Assembly: GCA_048538275.1 (NCBI GenBank)
Contig: JBLYPW010000001.1
Coordinates: 299,924-363,923, forward strand
Reading direction: 5' to 3'
Length of the DNA stretch: 64,000 bases
Origin: Candidatus Komeilibacteria bacterium
Lineage (GTDB): Bacteria > Patescibacteriota > Patescibacteriia > UBA1558
The translations under genes were made by a program, and so were the position numbers. This document shows positions 2,555-64,000 of this stretch, in pieces. The notes beneath the pieces were generated by a model. That model saw only the letters and a list, made by a program, of their open reading frames with translations. It had not been told where the DNA came from and searched no databases. Positions within the stretch are counted from its first letter, which is position 1. The number at the start of each line of letters is the position of its first letter.

Positions 2555-3575
2555 CTATTATTTCATCCAGATTGCCGTCTAGGATATTATTTAGATTATG
2601 TACAGTTAATTTTATACGATGGTCAGTGACACGATCCTGCGGCCAGTTATAGGTACGTATTTTTTCTGAGCGATCGCCGCTGCCAACTTGAGATTTGCGC
2701 GAGGCAGCTTCAGCTTGATGTTTGTCATCTTCTATTTTTTTTAATAAACGAGAACGTAGTACTTGCATTGCTTTCAGTTTATTTTGTTGTTGACTACGTT
2801 CGTCTTGACAAGAAACAACTATATTGGTGGGTAGGTGAGTAATGCGAATTGCTGAATAAGTAGTATTGACGCTTTGACCACCGTGTCCACCGGCGCAAAA
2901 GGTATCAATGCGCAAATCTTTGGGATTGATTTCTATGTCTATCTCTTCTGCCTCCGGCAAAACCGCCACAGTAGCTGCAGAGGTGTGAATACGTCCAGAT
3001 TTTTCTGTTTCGGGTACGCGTTGCACACGATGAACCCCACTTTCATATTTGAGACGACCATAAGCACCATTGCCAATAATTTCGACAATGATTTCTTTGT
3101 AGCCATTTAATTCTGTACGATTGGCAGCTACAATGTGTGTTTTCCAGCTGTGCTTTTCCGCATAGCGACTATACATGCGCCAAAGGTCAGCGGCAAATAA
3201 GGCAGATTCATCTCCTCCAGTACCGGCACGAATTTCTATAATGGCATTTTTTTTATCCATTGGATCTGATGGAATTAGCATTTGGTTAATCTCTGCTGCT
3301 AGCCTGGGTAATTCTTTGTGTAGTTTTTCCAATTCATCATTGATCATGGCTTTCATTTCTTCATCTGGTTCGGAATTGACTTGCTTTTCTAGATCACTTT
3401 GAGCTGCTTGTTTTTCAAAATAAGTAGATAGTGCAGCACTGATCTCTTTGCTTCTGCCATACTCTTGGGATAATTCTGCCAATTTTGCGCTATCATTAAC
3501 ATTGTCTGGATTTTGTAGATCAGCTTCCAGTTTCTTTATTTTTGTTTGGTATTCGGTGAGTAATTTTTTATCCAT
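2514..3575 (-). CDS. prfA: Peptide chain release factor 1
   Basis: GGQ motif ([10 protein letters not shown]), conserved RF1 core [21 protein letters not shown]; tripeptide reads PET rather than PAT/PVT. Confidence 0.9.
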
Positions 3576-3594
3576 AATTTTATTATAAAATAAA

Positions 3595-3629
3595 AAACCC
3601 TGTTGGCCAACGAGGGTTTTTTAGATAGT
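3595..3629 (-). terminator. Rho-independent terminator downstream of rpmE
   Basis: Palindrome ccctgttggccaacgaggg flanked by A-run/T-run. Confidence 0.5.
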
Positions 3630-3634
3630 AAAAG

Positions 3635-3925
3635 TTATTTTTCTTTAGCTTCTTCAGCGGCACGCTTGGCAGCTATTCTAATTTTCTTGGCTTTTTTACC
3701 TTTTCTTTCTTTAGCAACATCTGTTTGGCGAGCAATGCGTTTTTTAAATTTATCAACCCGACCAGCCGTATCTACTAGATTTTGTTTACCAGTATAGAAA
3801 GGATGACAGTTAGAACAAATTTCTACATGGATTGCTTTGATAGTAGAGCCAACAGTAAAACTATTGCCACAAGCACAAGTGACCTTAGCATTAGGATAAT
3901 ATTCTGGATGGATATCTTTTTTCAT
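3635..3925 (-). CDS. rpmE: 50S ribosomal protein L31 (Zn-ribbon form) with Lys-rich C-terminal extension
   Basis: [10 protein letters not shown]...CxC...[13 protein letters not shown]31 signature; ~30-aa K/A/E-rich tail. Confidence 0.85.
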
Positions 3926-4217
3926 AAAATAATGGTTAAATTAGATATTCGTGCAAGCGTCGCCAGTATAACAGAGGTGGGGCATAGTGTCAAGGGTTGT
4001 TTATTTAAGTAGTAAGTTTATTTAGTTTTGAGGATTGAGATTGGCCTGAGCATTGAATTATCGCTGATTAACAAAATTCAGCAGGCTCCAAAAATTTGTC
4101 AGCTATTTCCAAAAAAAAAGATTTTGATGATTTAGCATGTTCATAGTTTAACAAATTAGAGTGGTTTAGTCCACGCTATTATGTTATATTAGAGTTGTTC
4201 AATATTAGCGTCTTTCT

Positions 4218-4799
4218 ATGATAAAACGTTGTCCTTGGTGTGAGATAAATGATGAAATGATAGCTTATCATGATAAAATTTGGGGCGTGCCGGTGCGGCG
4301 CGATCGTGATATTTTTAAATTTTTTGTGCTGGATACTTTTCAAGCTGGTTTAAGCTGGAATATTATATGGCGTAAGCGGCAGGGATTTGCTCGGGCATTT
4401 GCTGATTTTGATTTTAATAAAGTGGCCCAGTTTAAGCAACGCAAAATAGAGTCAATGTTAAAAGATACCGGTATCATACGCAATCGCTTGAAAATTCAAG
4501 CTACCATTAATAATGCCCAGCGCTTTTTGGATATAAGACAAGAATTTAATACTTTTAGTCGTTATATCTGGCAATTTACCGGCGGTCAACCTAAGATAAA
4601 TAAATGGCAAAATATGAAGCTGATACCGACGTATAGTTCAGAATCTGATGCCATGAGCAGAGATTTAAAAGCGCGTGGTTTTAAATTTGTTGGTACTACC
4701 ATTTGTTATGCTTTTATGCAGGGCATAGGTATGGTAAATGATCACATTGTGAGTTGTCACCGCTATTCCGACCTTCAAGGTCTAAACCTTGAAGGTTGA
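4218..4799 (+). CDS. tag: DNA-3-methyladenine glycosylase I
   Basis: CPWC...YHDKIWGVP...QAGLSWNIIWRKR...IRNRLKI motifs typical of Tag. Confidence 0.8.
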   Translation: MIKRCPWCEINDEMIAYHDKIWGVPVRRDRDIFKFFVLDTFQAGLSWNIIWRKRQGFARAFADFDFNKVAQFKQRKIESMLKDTGIIRNRLKIQATINNAQRFLDIRQEFNTFSRYIWQFTGGQPKINKWQNMKLIPTYSSESDAMSRDLKARGFKFVGTTICYAFMQGIGMVNDHIVSCHRYSDLQGLNLEG

Positions 4800-40375: not shown

Positions 40376-40386
40376 CGTCGTAGTCG

Positions 40387-40458
40387 GGTTTCGCCACTGC
40401 GTGCGACAGATCAAGTCTGTCTCACTGCGTTTGACTCAACCACGCCTACTCCTTGCTG
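40387..40458. repeat. 72-bp perfect direct repeat, copy 1 (GC-rich, contains 10-bp-stem hairpin)
   Basis: Identical to 40524-40595; internal hairpin gtgcgacaga-tcaag-tctgtctcac. Confidence 0.75.
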
Positions 40459-40523
40459 GTCGTGACTTAACCATTCACTTCGTTCATGGCCCAAGTCACT
40501 CCCAGTTTTTTTCAGTTTGATCT

Positions 40524-40595
40524 GGTTTCGCCACTGCGTGCGACAGATCAAGTCTGTCTCACTGCGTTTGACTCAACCACGCCTACTCCTTGCTG
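40524..40595. repeat. 72-bp perfect direct repeat, copy 2
   Basis: Identical to 40387-40458 (period 137 bp). Confidence 0.75.
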
Positions 40596-40707
40596 CTCAC
40601 CTCGTCATATGAGGTTCGTTCCTTACCCTTCGCCTTTCTCTGTTTATTCAGAATCAAGATTTATTTTAATGTCAGTTTTTTTTAGATAAAATTGTTATAA
40701 TAGATTT

Positions 40708-41164
40708 ATGTCTACTGATATAAAGAAGATAATAGTCGCCTCCGGCCCAGTGATTATTGAAAACGGGGAAGTCTTGTTAAACAAACATGGGGATGATAAA
40801 TTTTGGAAATTTTTAGGTGGTAAAGTACAGGTCAGTGATTCAATCAATCTTTGGACGCCTTGGAACATGCTTGTCGGCGTGAGGTAAGAGAGGAAAACGG
40901 GATTGAATTGAGATTATTTGCGCTTTGCAACCCATGATGGTAGCTAAGCCAAAGGAGCCCGGCGTGTATGTTGTATTGATTCATTGGTTAGCGCGACGCA
41001 AGGGTGATATTGTTTTAGGGGTAGATATTGAAAATTATAAAACTTTTGTTGTGGATAAATTATTGTCCGGAAAATATAGAGGTGAACAATTTGCGCCTAA
41101 TATTAAGCCAGTATTACGTAATTATCAGTATTTGTTAAAGAGGGGAATATTAGCAAAACTTTAG
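40708..41164 (+). pseudogene. NUDIX hydrolase pseudogene (at least two frameshifts)
   Basis: N-terminus MSTDIKKIIVASGPVIIENGEVLL...KFLGGKVQ in frame 1, Nudix-box remainder LEHACRREVREENGIEL in a second frame ending RLFALCNP*, C-terminal part (ORF 40925-41164) in the third frame. Confidence 0.55.
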
Positions 41165-41250
41165 GATAGATAATGCCAGTTAGCATTATTTTTTATTTAT
41201 TGCTATAATACCTATACCATAGGTATAGGTTTAAATAATTAGTTAAATTT

Positions 41251-41523
41251 ATGACTAAAGCAGATAAAGATATTTTAATTTCTTTAAAGAAAGCGCAAAG
41301 TAGCTTAGCCAAGGTACAGGAGATGATAGAAGGCGGTAGTTATTGCGTCAAAGTGATGCAACAAACTTTGGCTGCTATTGGTTTGCTAAAAAGTGTAAAT
41401 ACTAAGTTGATGAAACGACATTTGGATAGTTGCTTTACTACGGCCGTGAAAGGTTCTAATAAACAAAAGGTCAGCGATATGATTGAGGAGATTATTCAAG
41501 TTAATAAATTGGCTAATAAGTAA
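41251..41523 (+). CDS. csoR: CsoR/RcnR-family metal-sensing transcriptional repressor
   Basis: ~90-aa helical protein with C-x(24)-H-x3-C spacing (YCVKV...KRHLDSC); upstream of copA. Confidence 0.6.
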   Translation: MTKADKDILISLKKAQSSLAKVQEMIEGGSYCVKVMQQTLAAIGLLKSVNTKLMKRHLDSCFTTAVKGSNKQKVSDMIEEIIQVNKLANK

Positions 41524-41534
41524 AGTATCTAAAT

Positions 41535-41861
41535 ATGAAAAATCATTTTCTAATTTTTTTTATGGCTTTAGTTAGTTTGTGGGCACTACCAATGATTACT
41601 TTGGCTGATTATGACCATATGATGATGGGTGGAGAAAATGTTTCTGCTAGTGCTTATCCCATGGGATGTCATTATTATGGTCTGGGTTGGCATTGGTTGG
41701 GCTGGTTAGTTGTAGCCTCAGTTGTTGTATTATTGCTTATTAAATTTTGGCAGGCGCCTGGTTATCAAGATGATGCCATGAAATTATTACGTGCACGTTA
41801 TGTCAAAGGTGAAATAAATGATGATGAATTTATACGTATGAAAAAAGCTTTACGAGATTAA
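41535..41861 (+). CDS. Small membrane protein with C-terminal SHOCT domain
   Basis: TM helices plus C-terminal LLRARYVKGEINDDEFIRMKKAL (SHOCT-like); His/Met-rich segment DYDHMMMGG. Confidence 0.5.
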   Translation: MKNHFLIFFMALVSLWALPMITLADYDHMMMGGENVSASAYPMGCHYYGLGWHWLGWLVVASVVVLLLIKFWQAPGYQDDAMKLLRARYVKGEINDDEFIRMKKALRD

Positions 41862-52405: not shown

Positions 52406-53650
52406 ATGGATTTATTTGATAAGAACTTAGATAGTGCTCGGCCTTTAGCCGATCGTATGCGTCCCCAAGATTGGACCCAGTTTTTTGGTCAGGCAGATAT
52501 TGTGGCTAAGGATAAAATTTTACGTCAGGCCATTGCTAATGATCAGCTTCCATCCATGATATTTTGGGGGCCTCCTGGTACGGGCAAGACTACTTTAGCA
52601 ACAATTATTGCTGAACAGACTAATTCTATTTTTGTTCAGCTATCGGCTGTGACCAGCGGCAAGAAAGATTTACAAACAGTGATTGAGCAGGCGCAACGCC
52701 AGCTAAAAGAGCAACAAACTCAGACGATTTTGTTTGTGGATGAAATTCATCGTTGGAATAAAGCTCAGCAAGATGCTTTATTGCCGTATGTAGAAAAGGG
52801 AGTTGTCACATTGATTGGCGCTACTACTGAAAATCCATCTTTTGAGATTATTTCCGCTTTATTATCTCGCTGCCGGGTATTTGTTTTGCATGCTTTGACA
52901 GAAGCGGACATTTTGAAGATTTTGCGTAAAGCTTTGCAAGATAAAGATCGTGGACTAGGCAAACTTGCTATTAAAGTCAGTGCCAAAGACTTGACTTATC
53001 TGGCTAGTTTATCGGCCGGTGATGCACGAGCGGCACTGAATGCTTTGGAGTTTGCTGTTTTGACTAAACTTAAGAAAAAAAGCAGCGGCGAGATCAATCG
53101 TAATGATATTGAACAAGCCATGCAAAGCAGTAGCTTGTATTATGATAAGGCAGGCGAAGAGCATTATAATATTATTTCCGCTCTCCATAAAAGTATGCGT
53201 GGTTCGGATGCTGATGCAGCTTTATATTATTTAGGAAGAATGTTAGAGGCGGGAGAAAGCCCTCTTTATGTGGCGCGACGTTTGATTCGTTTCGCTTCCG
53301 AGGATATTGGTTTGGCCAATTCACAGGCTTTGGTACAGGCAGTAGCGGCCTATCAGGCTTGCCATGATATTGGCATGCCGGAGTGTGAGTTGGCGCTTGC
53401 TCAGGCTGTAGTTTATATGGCAAAATGTAAGAAGAGTAATGAATTGTATCGTGCTTATGGTAAAGTAAAGCAGGATGTCAAAGCTACGATGCATTTACCA
53501 GTGCCTTTGCACTTACGCAATGCTGCAACCAAGTTAATGCAAGATGTCGGCTATGGTCAGGGTTATAAATATTCTCCGGATCATAATTATGAAGAAAAAC
53601 AAGAATATTTGCCGGAGGAGTTGAAGAATAAAAGGTATTTAGATCAGTAA
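52406..53650 (+). CDS. rarA: Replication-associated recombination protein A (RarA/MgsA AAA+ ATPase)
   Basis: MRPQ...FWGPPGTGKTTLATIIA Walker A, LFVDEIHRWNKAQQDALLP, C-terminal MgsA domains. Confidence 0.85.
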   Translation: MDLFDKNLDSARPLADRMRPQDWTQFFGQADIVAKDKILRQAIANDQLPSMIFWGPPGTGKTTLATIIAEQTNSIFVQLSAVTSGKKDLQTVIEQAQRQLKEQQTQTILFVDEIHRWNKAQQDALLPYVEKGVVTLIGATTENPSFEIISALLSRCRVFVLHALTEADILKILRKALQDKDRGLGKLAIKVSAKDLTYLASLSAGDARAALNALEFAVLTKLKKKSSGEINRNDIEQAMQSSSLYYDKAGEEHYNIISALHKSMRGSDADAALYYLGRMLEAGESPLYVARRLIRFASEDIGLANSQALVQAVAAYQACHDIGMPECELALAQAVVYMAKCKKSNELYRAYGKVKQDVKATMHLPVPLHLRNAATKLMQDVGYGQGYKYSPDHNYEEKQEYLPEELKNKRYLDQ

Positions 53651-53687
53651 ACGCATTTATCAATATTACAATTAAATAGTGTAAATT

Positions 53688-53918
53688 ATGTCCAATATAA
53701 AAATTGGAAAATATCGTCATTACAAAGGCAAAGATTATGAAGTCATCGGCGTAGCGCATCATAGCGAGACTTTAGAGGAGTTAGTAGTGTATCGGGCTTT
53801 GTATGATTCGGAAGAATTTGGTCCTCACGCTCTTTGGGTTAGACCAAAAGCAATGTTTATGGAGAATATTAGTATCGCCGGAGTGCTTAAGCCGCGCTTT
53901 AAGTATTTAAACGAGTAG
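53688..53918 (+). CDS. DUF1653 family protein
   Basis: KYRHYKGKDYEVIGVAHHSETLEELVVYRALY...WVRP motif typical of DUF1653. Confidence 0.55.
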   Translation: MSNIKIGKYRHYKGKDYEVIGVAHHSETLEELVVYRALYDSEEFGPHALWVRPKAMFMENISIAGVLKPRFKYLNE

Positions 53919-54040
53919 TGCTTATGTACTCCTGCGGCAGGGGGATGAGCAGGGTAGATTAAGGTTGTTTATAGTTTCTTATTATATGACACAAAAAATA
54001 GATTGGGTAAATTGATGAAAATAACTATTGACAGTAGAAG

Positions 54041-54071
54041 AAAACCGCCCCAATGGTTAGAGCGGTTTTTA
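54041..54071. terminator. Bidirectional rho-independent terminator
   Basis: aaccgc/gcggtt stem with 13-nt loop, A-run upstream and T-run downstream. Confidence 0.5.
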
Positions 54072-54086
54072 AATTTTCTTCTCGGT

Positions 54087-54338
54087 TCACTCCGTCGCTA
54101 GAGAATTAGCAATGTTTTCTAGATACTGAGCGACTTCATATTCACTACCTACCGGCATTAATTTTTGAGCCAAATCGCGCAAACAATCAATGACAGTTGG
54201 TTTATCTGCTTTGTCTAGTTGAGCGAGATGTATAATGTCGGCCAGATCTTTAATAAAAGTTAGTTTTTCTGGAGTTGTGTTTTGTAAAATTTTCTCCATT
54301 TTAAGAAAAACTAAAGTGATCCATATTTTCTTAGCCAT
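54087..54338 (-). CDS. Hypothetical protein
   Basis: 83-aa ORF. Confidence 0.35.
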   Translation of the reverse strand: MAKKIWITLVFLKMEKILQNTTPEKLTFIKDLADIIHLAQLDKADKPTVIDCLRDLAQKLMPVGSEYEVAQYLENIANSLATE

Positions 54339-54486
54339 AATAACCTCCTTGGCTAAATGTGCGATCTATTTATATCAAACCATTTATGCTTTATGAATGT
54401 CAACTTTCATATTGACTTTCTTTTGTTTTACACAAAGTTAAAAAATTGTTATAATTTAGTAGTTATTTTTATCACATTATATTACT

Positions 54487-54810
54487 ATGCAACCAGACAA
54501 ATGGGCAGAAATCAAAAATAAGATCAACAGCAGTTTTGAGGTGGTGGAAAACAATACAGAGGAGAATAAGGAGCAAAGGGAAACAATAGAAACGGTGGTT
54601 TTTAAGGGGCCTGCCGGTAAAATTCGTTTGGCTTATCGCACTCATCCGCGCGTTTTGGATAAGAAAACCACTTATTCAAATCGTATTGGTAGCGATGTAA
54701 AGGTGGATTATATTCTGTCTGATACAGAATACGCTCATGAGTTGACGGCTTGGCAATGGGATGAGGCTCAGGAGGAGTGGGTAGCCATGGACGCTAGTAC
54801 TTGGCAATAA
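54487..54810 (+). CDS. Hypothetical protein
   Basis: 107-aa ORF. Confidence 0.35.
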   Translation: MQPDKWAEIKNKINSSFEVVENNTEENKEQRETIETVVFKGPAGKIRLAYRTHPRVLDKKTTYSNRIGSDVKVDYILSDTEYAHELTAWQWDEAQEEWVAMDASTWQ

Positions 54811-57996: not shown

Positions 57997-60561
57997 ATGA
58001 AAAAAAGTAGCCAGCTTAATAATAAAAATCAGTCACCGGTAGATTTTGATTTGGCAGATTTTTATATTGCAGAAGAAGAGTTGGTAGAGGAGATTGCAAT
58101 TAAAGCTAAAGCAAAGCTTTTGACTCAGTATGAGCTTGATAAACTTATCAATCAATCAACGCAGCAAACCGCTTGGCCGATTCGCAAAAACAATTCTCAA
58201 TTATTACCAACTTCACCACATATTTTAGATTTGCGTCGGCGTCTCCAAGTCCAAGAACAAGAGTTAGCTGCGCTAGAGAAAGATTTGGTACGGCAACAGA
58301 ATGTTATCAGTTGGCGTCAACGTTGGTTGTCCTTGGTTCATTGGCAATGGCAATGGCCAGAATTTAGTTGGCGACCTGCTTTATGGCAAAAGTTATCAGC
58401 TGTTCAATTTTTGATCAGTTGTGGTCTTTTATTATTTATGATTCTCAAAAATCTTGGTCGACTTCTTAGATTTTCTTTGCGGCGGGTTGTTGATTTTATC
58501 TTACATGTTTGGTTGGGATTTCAGAAAATTAAGCGGCATATTAGAGAAGGTTTGACTAATGTACAAGAGGCGAGCTGGCGACGTGGTTTACGACCGGCCG
58601 CTATGTTTGCTGTTATTGCGACGCTATTATTATTGCCTTATGCTGTATTTGGTATTTATCGCGATGCTCGTATTACAGAGGGTAAGGTTATGGGTATTAG
58701 CCGGACGGCAATAGATGGTTGGCAATTGGGTGTGGATGCTTTAGTGCAAGGAGATTGGCAAGCCGCTTGGCAAGCATTTGATCGGGCCGGCACTGATTTT
58801 AGTGACGCCACGTCTTTGATTAACAATTATCAATCTGTTTTATTGAATATGTCACAAAATATGCCTGGTGCTTTGGGTAGAGCAGCAAGCGGTCAGAGAT
58901 TATTATCCTTAGGTGAAAAATTGTCGGCCACAGTAGCTGATATTAGTAGTACTATACAGTCTAGTCAGGACTCTGAAATGGTATTGACTGATAAGTTGAG
59001 TCTTTGGTCCGAACACTTATCCCAGTGGCGCGACGTTTATAATGATATTGGTCCTGACTTATTAGCTATTCAAGTTGATTTATTGCCCATGCAGTATCAG
59101 GCGCCTTTATTGTATTGGCAAAAAAACTATCATTTGATAGAAAATTTATTGAATGAAAGCCAGTTGACTTTAGATTGGTTGAAGGTCACTTTGGGCGCCA
59201 ATCAACCACAACGTTATTTGATTATGTTTCAAAATAGTAATGAACTAAGAGCCACGGGTGGCTTTATGGGCAGCTTTGCTTTATTGGATGTAGCACAAGG
59301 GGAAATAAGCAATATAGAAATACCGGGTGGTGGCATTTATGCTTTGCAAGGTCAACAAAAAGAGTTTGTCGCAGCACCTTATCCTATGCAGTTATTGAGC
59401 AGTCGTTGGCAGTGGTGGGATGCTAATTGGTGGCCTGACTGGCCCACCAGTGCGCAGAAGATAGCTTGGTTTTATGAGAGAGCGGGCGGTGCTACCGTAG
59501 ACGGCGTCATAGCGATCAATAGCCAAGTATTGAGTGATTGGATGAATTTAGTTGGTCCAATTTCATTGCCCAAGTATGATAAAGAATTAGATAGCGCTAA
59601 TGTTATATTAGCATTACAACATGCTGTTGAATTTGAATATGATAAACAAGCCAATCGTCCCAAGAGTATTATTGGTGATCTATTTCCGGTTTTGATGCAG
59701 AGGATTTATGATTTGCCAGCTGATAAGTATGCTACCGCCCTCGGTCTTGTCTTGGATGAATTCAATCGCTCTGATATACAATTTTATTTTACTAATGATG
59801 AACAGCAAAATTATGTTGCCAATCATCGCTGGGACGGCAGTATCAAAAAAATCAATGGTGATTATTTGAATGTGGTGGCTACGAATATCGGTGGCGGGAA
59901 AACAGACGCCGTTATTAAACAAAAAGTTGATTATCAAATAAGCTTGGGGCCAGATGATCATCTTATCGCTAAAGTAGCTATCACACGCAGTCATCATGGT
60001 GATCAGGAGGATGTATTTGAACGCCAACGTAATGTTTCCTTCTTGCGTCTTTATGTTCCCTTGGGGAGCGATCTTATTCAAGTAAACGGCGCTATGCCCC
60101 CTGATGATAAATTATTTGAGAGCGTGGGTAATGATTTAGCAGCTGATAAAAATTTAATTGCGTTTGATGGTTTGCATTATTATGCTCCATTTGAAAAGTA
60201 CTATAGCGTAGAACAGTTTGGTAAGCAGGTTTTTGGTCAATGGCTGATGGTGGACCCGGGAGAGAGTAAAACTATTACTTTTATTTATCGTTTGCCTATT
60301 GCCGTTGAGCAGGTGACAAATAAAACTGGTTGGCTGCCCTGGTCGCATAGCACTGCCCAGCGACTGGTGTATAGCTTATATGTGCAAAAGCAGTCGGGTG
60401 ATTTAAATACGGAGTTTAATTTTGCCACTAATTTAGATGATAGTTGGCAGATAGAGTGGGCCAAGGACAGTGATGGCAACTTAGTTAAGCTGGGGAATTG
60501 GTTATCGTCTAGTCAGCCGCTGCAGCGCGATTATCAGCTTGGTTTTATAATTACAAAGTAG
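57997..60561 (+). CDS. DUF4012 domain-containing membrane protein
   Basis: N-terminal TM region and conserved RYLIMFQNSNELRATGGFMGSFALLDV motif characteristic of DUF4012. Confidence 0.6.
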   Translation: MKKSSQLNNKNQSPVDFDLADFYIAEEELVEEIAIKAKAKLLTQYELDKLINQSTQQTAWPIRKNNSQLLPTSPHILDLRRRLQVQEQELAALEKDLVRQQNVISWRQRWLSLVHWQWQWPEFSWRPALWQKLSAVQFLISCGLLLFMILKNLGRLLRFSLRRVVDFILHVWLGFQKIKRHIREGLTNVQEASWRRGLRPAAMFAVIATLLLLPYAVFGIYRDARITEGKVMGISRTAIDGWQLGVDALVQGDWQAAWQAFDRAGTDFSDATSLINNYQSVLLNMSQNMPGALGRAASGQRLLSLGEKLSATVADISSTIQSSQDSEMVLTDKLSLWSEHLSQWRDVYNDIGPDLLAIQVDLLPMQYQAPLLYWQKNYHLIENLLNESQLTLDWLKVTLGANQPQRYLIMFQNSNELRATGGFMGSFALLDVAQGEISNIEIPGGGIYALQGQQKEFVAAPYPMQLLSSRWQWWDANWWPDWPTSAQKIAWFYERAGGATVDGVIAINSQVLSDWMNLVGPISLPKYDKELDSANVILALQHAVEFEYDKQANRPKSIIGDLFPVLMQRIYDLPADKYATALGLVLDEFNRSDIQFYFTNDEQQNYVANHRWDGSIKKINGDYLNVVATNIGGGKTDAVIKQKVDYQISLGPDDHLIAKVAITRSHHGDQEDVFERQRNVSFLRLYVPLGSDLIQVNGAMPPDDKLFESVGNDLAADKNLIAFDGLHYYAPFEKYYSVEQFGKQVFGQWLMVDPGESKTITFIYRLPIAVEQVTNKTGWLPWSHSTAQRLVYSLYVQKQSGDLNTEFNFATNLDDSWQIEWAKDSDGNLVKLGNWLSSSQPLQRDYQLGFIITK

Positions 60562-60586
60562 AAATAATATTAACGTATATTTATAA

Positions 60587-60610
60587 ATGCCTAATATTGG
60601 GCATTTTTTT
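60587..60610 (+). terminator. Weak rho-independent terminator
   Basis: atgcc/ggcat stem followed by T7. Confidence 0.35.
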
Positions 60611-60631
60611 CTATTTATGTGGATAAAGTCC

Positions 60632-60802
60632 TTGACAGATAGTACATAATAGTGTATATTACAGTATTAAATAAAATGTTTTTTTGAAAAATATTTGAAA
60701 TTGTATTAATATAGACTTCATAAGGAGAGAGTCAATATTAGTATCCTAAAGAGATATTAATATTGTTTTAGGAAAACGACCTACTCTCTCTGGGTCGTTT
60801 TT
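60632..60802 (+). ncRNA. Candidate small RNA: sigma70-like promoter (TTGACA-17-TATATT, 60632-60660) to intrinsic terminator (cgacc/ggtcg + T-run, 60777-60802)
   Basis: Consensus promoter spacing; ~135-nt transcript region with long-range pairing ggagagagt (60724-60732)/actctctct (60783-60791); no ORF. Confidence 0.3.
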
Positions 60803-61587
60803 CTTTAATTAGCTGTAGGGGGGAGAGTTATTTGTCGGTACTGACCGAGGATTGACGGTTGGGATCGGCGCGGTTTATGCCTTTTAGGCAATATCCGGCC
60901 AGTCACGTGTGACGTGATTGAACTGGATTTTACCTGGACATAATCCATCGTTTAGTGGGTTTTTTATAAAGCCAATGCTAAACCAACTCTTCTACCTATA
61001 GCTAGTTAGAGAGGATATTTATAAAATGGAAATTAAAGTCGGGCGTACATTATATATTTATTAAATTCTCCCATCGCTTTAGTTTCCAGCTTATAAATAT
61101 TCTAGTGAGATCAGCGTAGGTGGGGCTAATAAAATGGTTTGTTGTAGTCCGTGTGATAACCATCAAGCTATTTAGTCCCTCGTACATTGATTTTAAAAAA
61201 CAATATTTACGGCAGTGGTTATCCAAAAAAGTTGTTGGTACAACCCCGGTCACCCGGTGGGATAACAATAGGGTTCGATTCCCGACATTGCCACGCAAGG
61301 AGAGAGCAATCTCTCCTTTTATTACCAGCATAGTGATTGACAACAGAACAATAAGGTGTAGAATGAATTAGCTAAGAGTCATCTTGGCTAGAGAAAACTG
61401 CGCCCGAACTGAAGGCTGAATTACAGGATTCTTTATTCTTCAATAAAACGGAGAATAAACTCTCTCCTTTAAGAATACTGTAACTCATGCAATCCTCTCA
61501 GTCGGGCGCAGTTTTTTGCTTTGTATAATGATATTGCCTTATGGTATAATTTTATTAATACAGAATTTATAAATCCTATGAAAAATT
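60803..61587. other. Non-coding structured region: T-loop-like ggttcgattcc (61272-61282), terminator-like ggagagag-caat-ctctcc-TTTT (61299-61322), large nested inverted repeat 61398-61517 with T-run, tandem TATAAT boxes 61524-61550
   Basis: No credible ORF (two overlapping antiparallel ORFs with random-looking translations); multiple predicted stable hairpins. Confidence 0.3.
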
Positions 61588-63510
61588 ATGGAAAATCCAG
61601 ACTGGCTAAAAAATAAATATAATGATTTACACAATACAAAAGAAGTAAAGTCAGCTGTTCGAGCAGAAGAGCAGTTTACTGGTGAAAAAGTACCACAGAA
61701 TCCAGAACAACAGATTCAAAGCTATTTAGATCGTTTAGAAAAGTTAGTCCTTGATCCAGATAAAAAGCAATCAAGGAAAATGATGGGTAAAGAGCAAAGA
61801 CCAAGAGCCCTATCCTTACTTAGAGAAATGGTAATGAATGAATATATTCGTCCTAATAAAGAAAAACTAGCAGAAGGAGCAGCCAGAGTAGAAGAAAGAG
61901 CAGCTAGGAACTTAGGAATGGATATTGAATATGGAGAAGAACAATTAGAACAAAGAGGTGAAATAGCTATAGAAGATTTAGAAAAATCACTAGATAATTG
62001 GATTTCTTATCTTTCAGATGCTAATGAACCATATCCAACTTGGTTTAGATATTATGCTTTTAGAAATATATTAAAGCTAGGAGATTATGATAAAGACAAA
62101 AAAGAGTTTACCAAGAGAACTAAAGGTAGTACTAAACTATTCCCCGAAATAGATAGGGGAGCCTTAGCATATATACAGCAAAATATAGAAGCTTCTAAAG
62201 ATCCTAAAATACTTGCCAAGCTTCAAGAAGCACAAAAACAAGCAGCTAATGGTGATGTTCCAGAAGATCAGCTTATCACCAAAGAAAAGGTACAAAACTT
62301 TTCTAATCTTTCCTTTGCTAAGCAATATGCAGAAGGAATATCTAAAAATGGTGAAATAACCCCAGAGCTTAGAGCCATAACAGAAGGTAAATGGGTTAAG
62401 TATCAACAAGGTACAGAACCAACAGCTCTTTGGTCATCTCTACAAAACAAAGGCACAGCTTGGTGTACAAAAGGTTTTGCTACAGCCAAAACTCAACTTG
62501 AAGGTGGAGATTTTTATGTATATTACACATTAGATAAAAAAGGCAGTCCTACTATTCCTAGAATAGCTATAAGAATGCAAGGAGAGAATGTAGGAGAAGC
62601 CAGAGGAGTAGAAGACAGTGATCAGAATATGGAAGGTAATATGATAGCTATTGCCGAAGAAAAGCTAAGTACACTTCCAGGAGCTGAAAGCTATAAAGAA
62701 AAAACAGCTGACATGAAAATGCTTACTAGTATATATAACAGACATAAGCAAGGAGAAGAACTTATAAAAGAAGACCTTATCTTTTTATATGAAATAGATA
62801 AACCTATTCAAGGCTTTGGTTATAAAAAAGATCCGAGAATAGAAGAAATACGAGACAAAAGAGATGTAACCAAAGATGCATCAATTGTATTTGAATGCAC
62901 TCCAGATCAAATAGCTAAAAATATTAATGAAGTAAATGAAAATACAGTAGCATATATAGGGCAATGGAATATACCAGCTTTTCAAGTAATTAAAAACCAT
63001 CCCAATATTATTTACTTTTATGAATCTTTCCCAGATAAAAAGATATTCATGCAAACTCTAGAAACAGATCCTAGTATAGATTCACCTGATACAGCCAAAC
63101 AGTCTCTTAAAGATAAGAACATCTATCTTTCAGATTGGGGAAAGGATATTTTAGAAAAAACAGAGTTTAGTAAAGAAAAACAAGAATATGATTTAGTGAG
63201 ATTTACAGTAGAGCAATTAGGATTTCCAAATGGTGCTACTACTGATGAAATATATAATAAAGCTCAAGAGCTCGGACTTGAATTATGTCCAGCTGAAATT
63301 GGACCTCAATTAAGATTACAAAGTACTAGTAAGGAATGGATGCTTATTGCTATGAAACAGATTATAGACCGTGATGGCGCTCCGTCGCTGTTCGATCTGC
63401 GTGATGATGGTTATCAGCTGGTACTGAGCAGCGACGGTGCTTGGTCTGACGGCAGGTGGTTTTCGGACGGTAGGTTTGTGTTTCATTACCGCCCCAGTAG
63501 CAAAGCGTAG
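61588..63510 (+). CDS. Orphan 640-aa hypothetical protein; AT-rich body with abrupt GC-rich 3' end
   Basis: Long uninterrupted ORF, charged/low-complexity N-terminus, no signal peptide; composition shift at ~63360. Confidence 0.5.
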   Translation: MENPDWLKNKYNDLHNTKEVKSAVRAEEQFTGEKVPQNPEQQIQSYLDRLEKLVLDPDKKQSRKMMGKEQRPRALSLLREMVMNEYIRPNKEKLAEGAARVEERAARNLGMDIEYGEEQLEQRGEIAIEDLEKSLDNWISYLSDANEPYPTWFRYYAFRNILKLGDYDKDKKEFTKRTKGSTKLFPEIDRGALAYIQQNIEASKDPKILAKLQEAQKQAANGDVPEDQLITKEKVQNFSNLSFAKQYAEGISKNGEITPELRAITEGKWVKYQQGTEPTALWSSLQNKGTAWCTKGFATAKTQLEGGDFYVYYTLDKKGSPTIPRIAIRMQGENVGEARGVEDSDQNMEGNMIAIAEEKLSTLPGAESYKEKTADMKMLTSIYNRHKQGEELIKEDLIFLYEIDKPIQGFGYKKDPRIEEIRDKRDVTKDASIVFECTPDQIAKNINEVNENTVAYIGQWNIPAFQVIKNHPNIIYFYESFPDKKIFMQTLETDPSIDSPDTAKQSLKDKNIYLSDWGKDILEKTEFSKEKQEYDLVRFTVEQLGFPNGATTDEIYNKAQELGLELCPAEIGPQLRLQSTSKEWMLIAMKQIIDRDGAPSLFDLRDDGYQLVLSSDGAWSDGRWFSDGRFVFHYRPSSKA

Positions 63511-63550
63511 CTTGCTACGGGGCAAGCAAGTTAGAAACTTAGAAATTTTG

Positions 63551-63597
63551 CCTGCCTGCCGAAGCTTCGGCGTAGGCAGGATCCTTTGTTTTTTTAA
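63551..63597 (+). terminator. GC-rich rho-independent terminator
   Basis: Nested palindrome cctgcctgccgaagcttcggcgtaggcagg followed by TTTGTTTTTTT. Confidence 0.6.
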
Positions 63598-63739
63598 TTC
63601 TTTGATTTCTTTGACGCTTTGATACTTTGCCTGTCCATCGTAACAACTGTTCATGTTTCGCATACAGGTAGGTTGATGCAGGTGGGATTATTTTAGGTGG
63701 ACAAAATTGTAATTTTTCCCTATAATAATAGGGATTTTT

Positions 63740-64000
63740 ATGTGGCATAGATTGTGGCACAAATTAATAACAACCGTAACTGGTGGGGCAGTATTGATTG
63801 CCTTTTTTTCTATTATATCCAAGGTAATAGGTCTTTTTCGTGATCACTTATTAGCTAGTAATTTTGGCGCTGATCAAACTTTAGATATTTATTATGCCAG
63901 TTTTCGTTTACCTGATTTTATATTCAACACCTTGGTGTTGGGAGCATTGTCAGCGGCTTTTATACCTATATTTGTCAAACTATGGCACAACAATGAAGAA
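63740..64000 (+). CDS. murJ: Lipid II flippase MurJ (N-terminal 87 codons; continues beyond window)
   Basis: GLFRDHLLASNFGA...DIYYASFRLPDFIFNTLVLGALSAAFIPIF matches the conserved MurJ/MviN N-terminus; open to window end. Confidence 0.6.
   Translation, partial: MWHRLWHKLITTVTGGAVLIAFFSIISKVIGLFRDHLLASNFGADQTLDIYYASFRLPDFIFNTLVLGALSAAFIPIFVKLWHNNEE

Follow-up and report, generated by a model that had tools for sequence, protein, structure and literature searches.

What occupies the kilobase between two genes at positions 60562–61587 of a 64,000-nucleotide (nt) stretch of a Candidatus Komeilibacteria genome (hereafter the window, with all coordinates counted from its first letter)? The region separates a DUF4012 gene (57997–60561, 854 aa) from an orphan gene of 640 aa (61588–63510), with the start of murJ at ~63741. 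Genomes of the Candidate Phyla Radiation (CPR)/Patescibacteria measure ~1 Mb or less and are tightly packed, so that a conserved non-coding kilobase is costly and presumably useful. An earlier note, made from the sequence alone, had read the region as non-coding and had proposed one or more non-coding RNAs (ncRNAs) or a mobile-element boundary. Our analysis favours, with a probability of roughly 0.7, a lineage-specific island of ncRNA genes on the + strand at 60632–61517, conserved across Candidatus Komeilibacteria between DUF4012 and murJ. The island is best modelled as two promoter-to-terminator blocks: block 1, in which promoter P1 is followed by modules M1, M2, M3, M4 and M5 and by terminator T5, and a second block consisting of promoter P6 and module M6. 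The three structured modules between 60812 and 61195 (M2–M4) and P6 had not been named in the earlier note.

The window DUF4012 protein has a counterpart of 100% identity in a Komeilibacteria metagenome-assembled genome, on a 487-kb contig. Relatives were contigs encoding DUF4012 homologues, taken from a homologous-protein search and complemented by pattern scans; a contig search for related loci with the DUF4012 protein as query returned none, as did exact look-ups of proteins from the window itself. Including the window, the sample covers ~9 distinct Komeilibacteria lineages, whose loci carry numbers with the prefix L: clade A (L001, L006, L013, L016), clade B (L002/L009, L004/L005/L007/L012, L018) and, outside these clades, the window, L003, L014 (partial) and L015. 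Per-lineage counts of modules use n = 10 lineages unless another n is given. The gene order in these loci is an HtrA-like protease, DUF4012, a gap of 0.85–1.9 kb and then usually murJ and lepA. The gap is kept in every Komeilibacteria locus recovered, with murJ next in all but L015, and is free of family-bearing genes except for one weak Pfam match in L003. In the Kerfeldbacteria outgroup L023, DUF4012 and murJ are spaced by 2 nt, and in another Parcubacteria relative DUF4012 abuts the next gene with no gap. Relative to these outgroups, the non-coding block is thus a Komeilibacteria-specific insertion.

The two overlapping mechanical open reading frames (ORFs) of the region exist, as the earlier note had said, and show no protein-level conservation in relatives. 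By BLASTN, the hairpin at 61392–61528 is 72–81% identical in all relatives, against only 40–45% identity between the flanking DUF4012 protein of the window and its next relatives. The block formed by the DUF4012 terminator and P1 is 73–77% identical. Read side by side across relatives, the gaps contain one ordered set of modules. Every lineage has terminators at the equivalent positions, and in the window and clade A neighbouring modules abut with only a few nucleotides between them.

The secondary structures of M2, M3 and M6 are kept through compensatory substitutions. M2 (60812–61002, + strand) is an ~190-nt RNA with a four-way junction, in which a long closing helix (60812–60829 paired with 60985–61002) surrounds three hairpins; the same minimum-free-energy architecture is found in 10/10 lineages. 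In its alignment 94.7% of cells are paired and 17 pairs have changed on both sides, a result reached by 0/500 shuffles, while slid controls, in which the 3' partners were shifted by 1–3 columns, gave 29–53%. M3 (61013–61102, + strand), an ~90-nt hairpin with a conserved internal loop (5' TC / 3' ATCG), has 30 pairs, 16 of them changed on both sides, with 93.3% of cells paired (0/500 shuffles; slid controls 38–50%). For M6, the corresponding values are 39 pairs, 9 changed on both sides and 98.1% of cells paired (0/500 shuffles; slid controls 35–52%). The structures remain supported under the slid control, which, unlike the shuffle control, does not ignore relatedness between the sequences. Frequent G–U pairs support the + strand. 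M4 (61106–61195, + strand) forms an ~90-nt hairpin with a conserved inner hairpin and loop (TAGTCCnnGTG...), and its long hairpin is seen in all 8 lineages folded (z = −4.1 to −8.6). The inner stem has covariation support in 10 sequences; RNAalifold recovers the inner hairpin only, since the outer stem lengths differ between lineages. The M4 outer stem and M1 are supported by lineage-by-lineage inspection, not by alignment statistics.

The modules were compared with known families by searching Rfam 15 at the gathering threshold in the window and at E ≤ 10 in the window region, and at E ≤ 5 in L001, L002 and L015. At the gathering threshold, the window yielded tRNA-Glu and an L10 leader elsewhere and no module; at the relaxed E thresholds, the four loci gave, besides the mascRNA alignment of M5 described below, only matches of the miRNA-type hairpin, terminator-type small-RNA and T-loop kinds. 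No module belongs to an Rfam 15 family. The earlier note had named covariation in relatives and Rfam and transfer-messenger RNA (tmRNA) searches as its checks: covariation supports the promoter/terminator-delimited units as well as the long inverted repeat, and the Rfam and tmRNA searches are negative. Together these outcomes point to undescribed families rather than to decay, in line with the note's suggestion of one or more ncRNAs. We found no literature on lineage-specific regulatory or small RNAs in Komeilibacteria or the CPR. Paralogues of the modules are absent from the window (BLASTN and nhmmer with all module profiles), which does not fit a repetitive extragenic element or miniature inverted-repeat transposable element. 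Scans of viral contigs gave no M6 match; three M4-motif matches in them appear inside protein-coding sequence and were rejected, as were three M6 pattern-scan matches in L008, L010 and L011, which fall in GC-rich, coding-like sequence and are due to chance.

Block 1 would start at P1 (TTGACA-17-TATATT, 60632–60660, + strand), the promoter that the earlier note had reported at this position. It matches 11/12 positions, scores 11/12 also in L001 and L002, and recurs as the same pattern in the same place in 10/10 lineages. Promoter-like hexamers as a class are not enriched (6 found against 5.1 expected); P1 and P6 are credible because their position is conserved in the relatives checked, not because of hexamer frequency. 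M1 (60667–60806, + strand), a putative small RNA or leader, follows P1; the stretch 60660–60810 folds at z = −4.5. A hairpin at 60714–60733 carries a GA-rich loop (AAGGAGAGAG), and the module closes with a terminator (60771–60806) formed by a 14-bp stem and a T-run. This is the terminator described in the earlier note, with the stem GGAAAACGACC / GGGTCGTTTTTC at 60771–60803 and the T-run reaching ~60806. Its unusually large 10-nt loop (60782–60791) carries CTCTCTCT, and CUCUCU is always present in it. Both strings of the long-range pairing claimed earlier, GGAGAGAGT (60724–60732) and ACTCTCTCT (60783–60791), are likewise in place. The GA-loop hairpin and the CU-loop terminator occur in 9/10 lineages; the stem sequences differ between clades and lineages with complementarity kept, and the middle hairpin of M1 is lineage-variable. 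In the remaining lineage, L003, M1 is missing and P1 leads straight into M2. A role of the GA motif as the Shine–Dalgarno (SD) sequence of a small ORF was ruled out, as start codons and reading frames are not conserved.

The second block begins at P6 (TTGACA-16-TAGAAT, 61337–61364, + strand), which matches 11/12 positions and scores 10–11/12 in L001 and L002. An equivalent TTGACA or TTGACT box precedes M6 in 9/10 lineages; the L003 match of the pattern falls inside M4. M6 (61369–61517, + strand), a predicted small RNA of ~150 nt, opens with a 5' hairpin (61369–61390) that is present in every lineage with variable sequence. It continues as a long irregular hairpin of 126 nt (61392–61517), whose GC-rich base and T-run would act as its own terminator. 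The long inverted repeat at 61398–61517 with its T-run, noted earlier, folds at −64 kcal/mol, and 0/200 shuffles are as good (z = −7.25, for the stretch 61365–61525). An internal loop (GGCUGAAUUA / UAACUCAUGCAAUCC) is invariant, and an unpaired CU-rich bulge, AAACTCTCTCCTTT, lies at 61457–61470 (bulge motif AACUCUCUCCU). M6 combines the sequence marks of an independent small-RNA gene: its own promoter, a Rho-independent terminator and a conserved structure.

At 61272–61282 the earlier note had seen a perfect T-loop string, GGTTCGATTCC, and had called it a tRNA T-loop-like fragment. The string is present, at one of two sites in 64 kb where 0.06 would be expected, the other being a real tRNA-Glu. 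It is not isolated: it belongs to a complete tRNA-shaped element, M5 (61211–61293, + strand, 83 nt), in a stretch (61200–61325) that folds at z = −4.5. The fold and an alignment to the mascRNA model show a 7-bp acceptor stem (GGCAGTG / CATTGCC, 61211–61217 with 61286–61292) and a T arm (61269–61285), with the discriminator base at 61293; a body made of a 7-bp stem with two small hairpins replaces the D and anticodon arms. The hairpin after the T-loop that had been described earlier, GGAGAGAG-CAAT-CTCTCC-TTTT, was recovered by the terminator scan and by folding as T5 (61297–61322, + strand), the intrinsic terminator closing the M1–M5 unit; a terminator hairpin of differing sequence stands at this position in every lineage. 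The note had offered an att remnant or an ncRNA 3' domain as identities for the tRNA-like piece. The latter fits better, a complete selected fold standing directly upstream of a terminator, and the former finds no flanking direct repeat.

M5 is present in the window, L014, L002/L007, L004/L005/L012 and L018. Across six variants, the acceptor stem is GGC...GCC and pairs over 5–7 bp (7/7 in four variants, 6 in L018, 5 in L004), and the T arm with GTTCGAyTC is kept, three of its stem pairs switching between GC and AU on both sides. The discriminator base is a purine, and the body folds, though not as a D arm plus anticodon arm. ARAGORN in default, relaxed, intron, mitochondrial and tmRNA modes gives nothing consistent for M5: only tRNA-Glu is found in the window, and the relaxed search of M5 orthologues assigns inconsistent anticodons or none. 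The window M5 has no Rfam tRNA match; the best score on the Rfam tRNA model (RF00005) is that of L002, 24.5 bits against a gathering score of 29. No 3' CCA is encoded, the element being followed by ACGCA, GCAAC, ACAAC or ACAAT; the tRNA-Glu, tRNA-Gly and tRNA-Thr genes of the window and these loci each carry an encoded CCA. A tRNA group I intron, as reported from Patescibacteria (PMC13011429), was ruled out, the body measuring only ~55 nt and giving no group I intron match.

M5 is no tmRNA either. The ARAGORN tmRNA mode is negative at default and relaxed thresholds, neither a tag frame nor pseudoknots were seen, and the Rfam tmRNA match covers a 13-nt T-loop only (10.9 bits against a gathering score of 47, E = 0.058). 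Alanine charging of tmRNA requires G–U at acceptor pair 3:70, which in M5 is C–G. The acceptor strands are ~70 nt apart, with ~55 nt between the acceptor strand and the T arm, a spacing too short to hold a tag reading frame. M5 is a tRNA mimic, neither tRNA nor tmRNA.

The body of M5 comes in three types: a (L002, L007), b (L004, L018) and c (window, L014). Within a type, the bodies are 94–96% identical between lineages with flanks only ~72–82% identical, and types a and b are distributed incongruently with flank similarity. L004 and L007 are 94–100% identical apart from an ~350-nt indel, yet their M5 body is wholly replaced, with the break inside the acceptor stem (L004 13868–13935 versus L007 reverse strand ~1043). 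This pattern of identity and replacement shows that the body is selected and exchangeable, not drifting.

In shape and position, M5 resembles the mascRNA/MEN-beta elements (RF01684) of MALAT1 and NEAT1, which likewise combine an acceptor stem and T arm with no proper anticodon arm and sit 3'-terminally in a non-coding transcript. In M5, it is the acceptor stem and T arm that the mascRNA model aligns (17 bits, E = 2.4). The likeness is one of shape and position alone: mascRNA is eukaryotic, whereas M5 is bacterial, is followed by a terminator, is optional between lineages and has three unrelated body types. The tRNA-like domain of tmRNA and the bacterial Y RNA YrlA share with M5 a GTTCGAnTC T-loop and an acceptor-like helix, the anticodon arm being replaced. 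Unlike tmRNA, M5 lacks G3–U70, a tag reading frame and pseudoknots; unlike YrlA, it has no terminal helix beyond the acceptor stem, no Ro/Rsr gene nearby and no Rfam match, and is not to be classed as a Y RNA.

The GA and CU motifs of M1 and M6 are complementary. All four GGAGAGAG/CTCTCTCC sites of the window fall within 60259–61467, against 0.62 expected. The M6 bulge is a perfect complement of the M1 loop over 11 nt in the window and 12 nt in clade A; elsewhere the complement spans 9 nt (L015 and L004/L007), 8 nt (L002) or ~7 nt (L018), and non-cognate combinations of window and clade-A M1 and M6 reach only 7–8 nt. The pairing sequences are AAGGAGAGAGU / ACUCUCUCCUU for the window type and UUCUGAGGAGAG / CUCUCCUCAGAA for the clade-A type. 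The two bulges differ at four positions (U6C, C7U, U9A, U10G), and the M1 loops differ at exactly the four positions that pair with these. L003, which is without the M1 hairpin, has a degenerate M6 bulge, CUCUAUCAUU. A further complement of the bulge, 7–10 nt long, lies in the 5' strand of the M2 closing helix. RNAduplex of full-length M1 against M6 was discarded, as it returned meaningless giant-loop duplexes. This complementarity with its lineage-specific changes suggests, though it does not prove, an RNA–RNA circuit. A GGAG-type SD sequence precedes only ~4/51 window genes, and most starts have A/T-rich sequence ahead of them. Translation in this organism may thus begin largely without SD sequences, and a general anti-SD role for the CU bulge is unlikely. 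A conformational switch is also possible: in the window and clade A, the M6 bulge may instead be tied up in a hairpin resembling T5. T5 itself (61299–61319, GGAGAGAGCAATCTCTCCTTT) and the apical 3' part and bulge of M6 (61450–61470, GGAGAATAAACTCTCTCCTTT) are 76% alike.

Known RNA pairs offer partial parallels. RsaE/RoxS of Firmicutes are trans-acting small RNAs with C/U-rich seeds and Rho-independent terminators. M6 resembles them in having its own promoter, a length of ~150 nt, a terminator hairpin and an unpaired pyrimidine stretch complementary to SD-like purines. It differs in that the only good complements found for it lie in M1 and M2, not in mRNA ribosome-binding sites, in a genome largely without SD sequences; its seed, moreover, lies in the bulge of a long hairpin and not in an apical loop, and there is no sequence or Rfam relationship. 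The kissing pairs RNAI/RNAII of ColE1 and CopA/CopT of R1 arise from opposite strands of the same DNA and are complementary by construction. As in these pairs, the M1 loop is complementary to an exposed segment of a nearby-encoded RNA, M6, and the target is proposed to be affected in its termination or folding. In contrast to them, M1 and M6 are encoded separately, ~700 nt apart on one strand, and only selection would maintain their complementarity.

Several observations weigh against the ncRNA island and the M1–M6 pairing. Sampling is narrow, covering only ~9 lineages from one candidate phylum, and transcription starts, RNA ends and processing are all inferred from the DNA. Module content varies: M1 is absent in L003, M3 in L003 and L015, and M5 in clade A, L003 and L015, which leaves only M2, M4 and M6 universal. 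Small ORFs lie between M2 and M3 in clade B and L003, and block 1 may not be one transcript. The M1 structure was not recovered by RNAalifold on a MAFFT alignment, which was uninformative here. Regarding the pairing, the clade B complement of 7–9 nt is not significant by length, as 50–251 of 500 shuffles do as well; GA/CU sequence is of low complexity, so that the pairing register is ambiguous; and RNAcofold, which cannot represent a loop–bulge kiss, predicts an M1–M6 duplex in clade A only. GA/CU helices recur in the M2 closing helix, the M3 stem and T5. Together with the likeness of T5 and M6, this means that the complementarity could reflect shared ancestry of the modules, mimicking co-evolution.

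Could block 1 (M1–M5, ~650 nt) instead be one large ornate ncRNA like OLE, GOLLD or ROOL, with M6 as a separate partner? The abutting modules of the window and clade A would suit such an RNA, as would the absence of promoter-like sites between P1 and T5, apart from a weak TTGAAA-17-TAATAT inside M1, and the local closure of all helices, as in multi-domain RNAs. OLE, GOLLD and ROOL are also several hundred nt long and multi-domain with covariation-supported structure, and GOLLD and ROOL often adjoin tRNAs. Here, however, a strong terminator follows M1 in 9/10 lineages, small ORFs with their own terminators part M2 from M3 in clade B and L003, M1, M3 and M5 are each missing in some lineages, and there is no Rfam match to large-RNA families; unlike the known examples, the array is split internally and varies in content. 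We therefore regard a single large RNA as unlikely. More improbable still is a cis-regulatory leader, a riboswitch or attenuator of the downstream gene (murJ in relatives, the orphan gene here). M6 does lie directly upstream of murJ in most relatives and ends like a terminator, as in an 'off' riboswitch, but it has its own conserved promoter, and a separate conserved promoter, TAGACA-17-TATAAT, stands between its T-run and murJ. The downstream gene also changes, from murJ to a transglutaminase-like gene in L015, the orphan gene in the window and other sequence in L013, and the main M6 fold is one closed hairpin with no conserved anti-terminator pairing seen in the alignment.

The tRNA-like shape of M5 raises the question of whether the region is the scar or hot spot of an integrative element that targets a tRNA gene, with M5 as a decayed att tRNA and the rest as debris. 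The island is indeed an insertion relative to the outgroups, its cargo varies (small membrane ORFs, the orphan gene, the transglutaminase-like gene), the M5 body has been exchanged between near-identical genomes, and the L002 score of 24.5 bits on the Rfam tRNA model (threshold 29) makes a tRNA origin plausible. Against this stand the absence of an integrase or transposase from every locus, the lack of a direct repeat of the M5 or M6 3' end flanking the orphan gene, the single copy of each module in the window and strong covariation in M2, M3, M6 and the M5 T-stem, which indicates purifying selection on structure and not decay; such a scar is quite improbable. A divergent housekeeping RNA (tmRNA, RNase P RNA, signal recognition particle (SRP) RNA or 6S RNA) missed by standard models would find some support in the 13-nt T-loop match to tmRNA, in a partial beta-tmRNA match in L002 and in the long irregular hairpin of M6, comparable in size to 6S or SRP RNA. 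The tmRNA evidence set out above (ARAGORN, pair 3:70, no room for a tag frame) speaks against it. No 6S, SRP or RNase P match was obtained in four lineages at E cut-offs of 5–10 (10 for the window region, 5 for the other three), and the sequence holds neither the SRP GGAA/AGCA motifs nor the RNase P RNA motif GAGGAAAGUCC, leaving this explanation very little probability. Decaying spacer DNA, in which hairpins, promoter-like site and T-loop arose by chance, we discount almost completely: the count of promoter-like sites (6 against 5.1 in shuffled sequence) and the missing Rfam matches would allow it, but the fold z-scores of −4.5 to −7.25 and a module order conserved across ~9 lineages with compensatory changes do not, and the covariation counts refute it.

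If the region is an ncRNA island, how would its parts work together? M6 may be a trans-acting base-pairing RNA whose conserved CU bulge pairs with the GA loop of M1, or invades the M2 closing helix at its GA-rich 5' strand, or does both. M1 fills the only space between P1 and M2, where a further promoter would not fit, and in L003 P1 runs into M2, so the M1 terminator is probably an attenuator for M2–M5; pairing with M6 could tune this attenuation. M5, in turn, might offer its acceptor/T-arm 'top half' and a GG-bearing loop to tRNA-processing enzymes such as RNase P, RNase Z or the CCA-adding enzyme, which would then cut or protect the 3' end of an M2–M4 transcript, as mascRNA-type elements do in eukaryotes. 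What is visible here of mascRNA-type processing is shape and position only, M5 lying downstream of M4 and directly upstream of T5. The allele-like types of its body hint at a more specific role. We give roughly one chance in three to M6 acting in trans on M1 and/or M2, and about the same to M5 as a recruiter of tRNA-processing enzymes. A more elaborate scheme, in which M6 would control read-through of an M1 attenuator that gates M2–M4 and M5 would represent at least three ancient exchangeable 'specificity' types kept as a polymorphism in an RNA-only device, is speculative and, taken as a whole, unlikely.

The boundary that the earlier note had suspected survives in part. Different genes have been inserted after the M6 terminator in different lineages, but neither integrases, transposases nor att repeats occur among the adjacent called genes or in 60500–64000. 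A better description than 'mobile-element boundary' is that of a recurrent insertion point beside a conserved RNA gene. Directly after the M6 T-run, most lineages have the murJ promoter (TAGACA-17-TATAAT in L001 and L002), L015 has the transglutaminase-like gene, and the window has the orphan cassette. On the reverse strand of L013 (119–140), the sequence diverges from L001/L006 right after the M6 T-run (GTTTTTTGTGGGTTC... versus GTTTTTTGTTATCTAGACA...); this makes a second break, independent of the orphan-gene insertion of the window, at the same spot. A search of 60500–64000 for direct repeats of the 3' ends of M5 and M6 around the orphan gene was negative, no integrase or transposase was found among the called genes of any locus, and the marks of a tRNA-gene att site are lacking.

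The orphan gene is AT-rich (~34% GC), shows a strong skew of A over T and occurs in none of the relatives; its protein belongs to no Pfam, PHROG, PADLOC or NCBIfam family. The two TATAAT boxes reported before it are present at 61524–61529 and 61545–61550 (+ strand). By sequence reading these −10 boxes serve the orphan gene, lie outside the island proper, and the second has an upstream TG, giving the gene an extended −10 promoter of its own (61542–61550); an apparent terminator hairpin follows at ~63550–63596. The stretch 61588–63596, with the gene and this hairpin, looks like a cassette that was recently inserted after the M6 terminator and ahead of the murJ promoter.

Further features of the locus lie around and within the modules. 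The DUF4012 gene ends in an intrinsic terminator at 60585–60612 (+ strand; terminator scan, 9-bp stem and T-run), conserved at 73–77%. The small ORFs between M2 and M3 number one to three, encode 41–113 aa, several of their products being membrane-protein-like, and occupy 12990–13800 in L002, 12990–13550 in L004, 4289–4615 in L018 and 12955–13296 in L003. A repeated ~60-nt block (cccaagtctagtacttaggtaatagatttaggaagtaatttgtacattgaa) stands before two of those in L002, and the set differs even between the near-identical L004 and L007 (the ~350-nt indel). The AT-rich segment before the GA hairpin of M1 (60674–60720, ...TTGAAAAATATTTGAAATTGTATTAATATAGACTTC) is similar to what precedes M3 in clade B (L002 13868–13905), and 60699–60720 is 82% similar to the promoter region of the orphan gene (61548–61569); these are hints that promoter-like segments have been duplicated or shuffled within the island. 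Elsewhere in the tightly packed window, other long stretches without an ORF of at least 100 aa are found at 40376–41535, directly downstream of tRNA-Glu, at 53650–54487 and at 3575–4218. None has an Rfam match at the gathering threshold, and they may hold more undescribed RNAs or small genes.

For the Komeilibacteria, the locus adds five or six RNA modules that are absent from Rfam 15, with covariation-supported alignments for M2, M3 and M6, and a candidate RNA–RNA pairing between two separately encoded neighbours. It presents a bacterial tRNA mimic at the 3' end of a putative non-coding transcription unit, with allele-like body types. In the more elaborate and unlikely scheme, the maintained polymorphism of M5 would be expected of a decoy or target in a conflict, for instance with tRNA-directed nucleases or phages, and not of a passive processing signal. 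The insertion site after the M6 terminator would also help to annotate new cargo genes, the 640-aa orphan among them.

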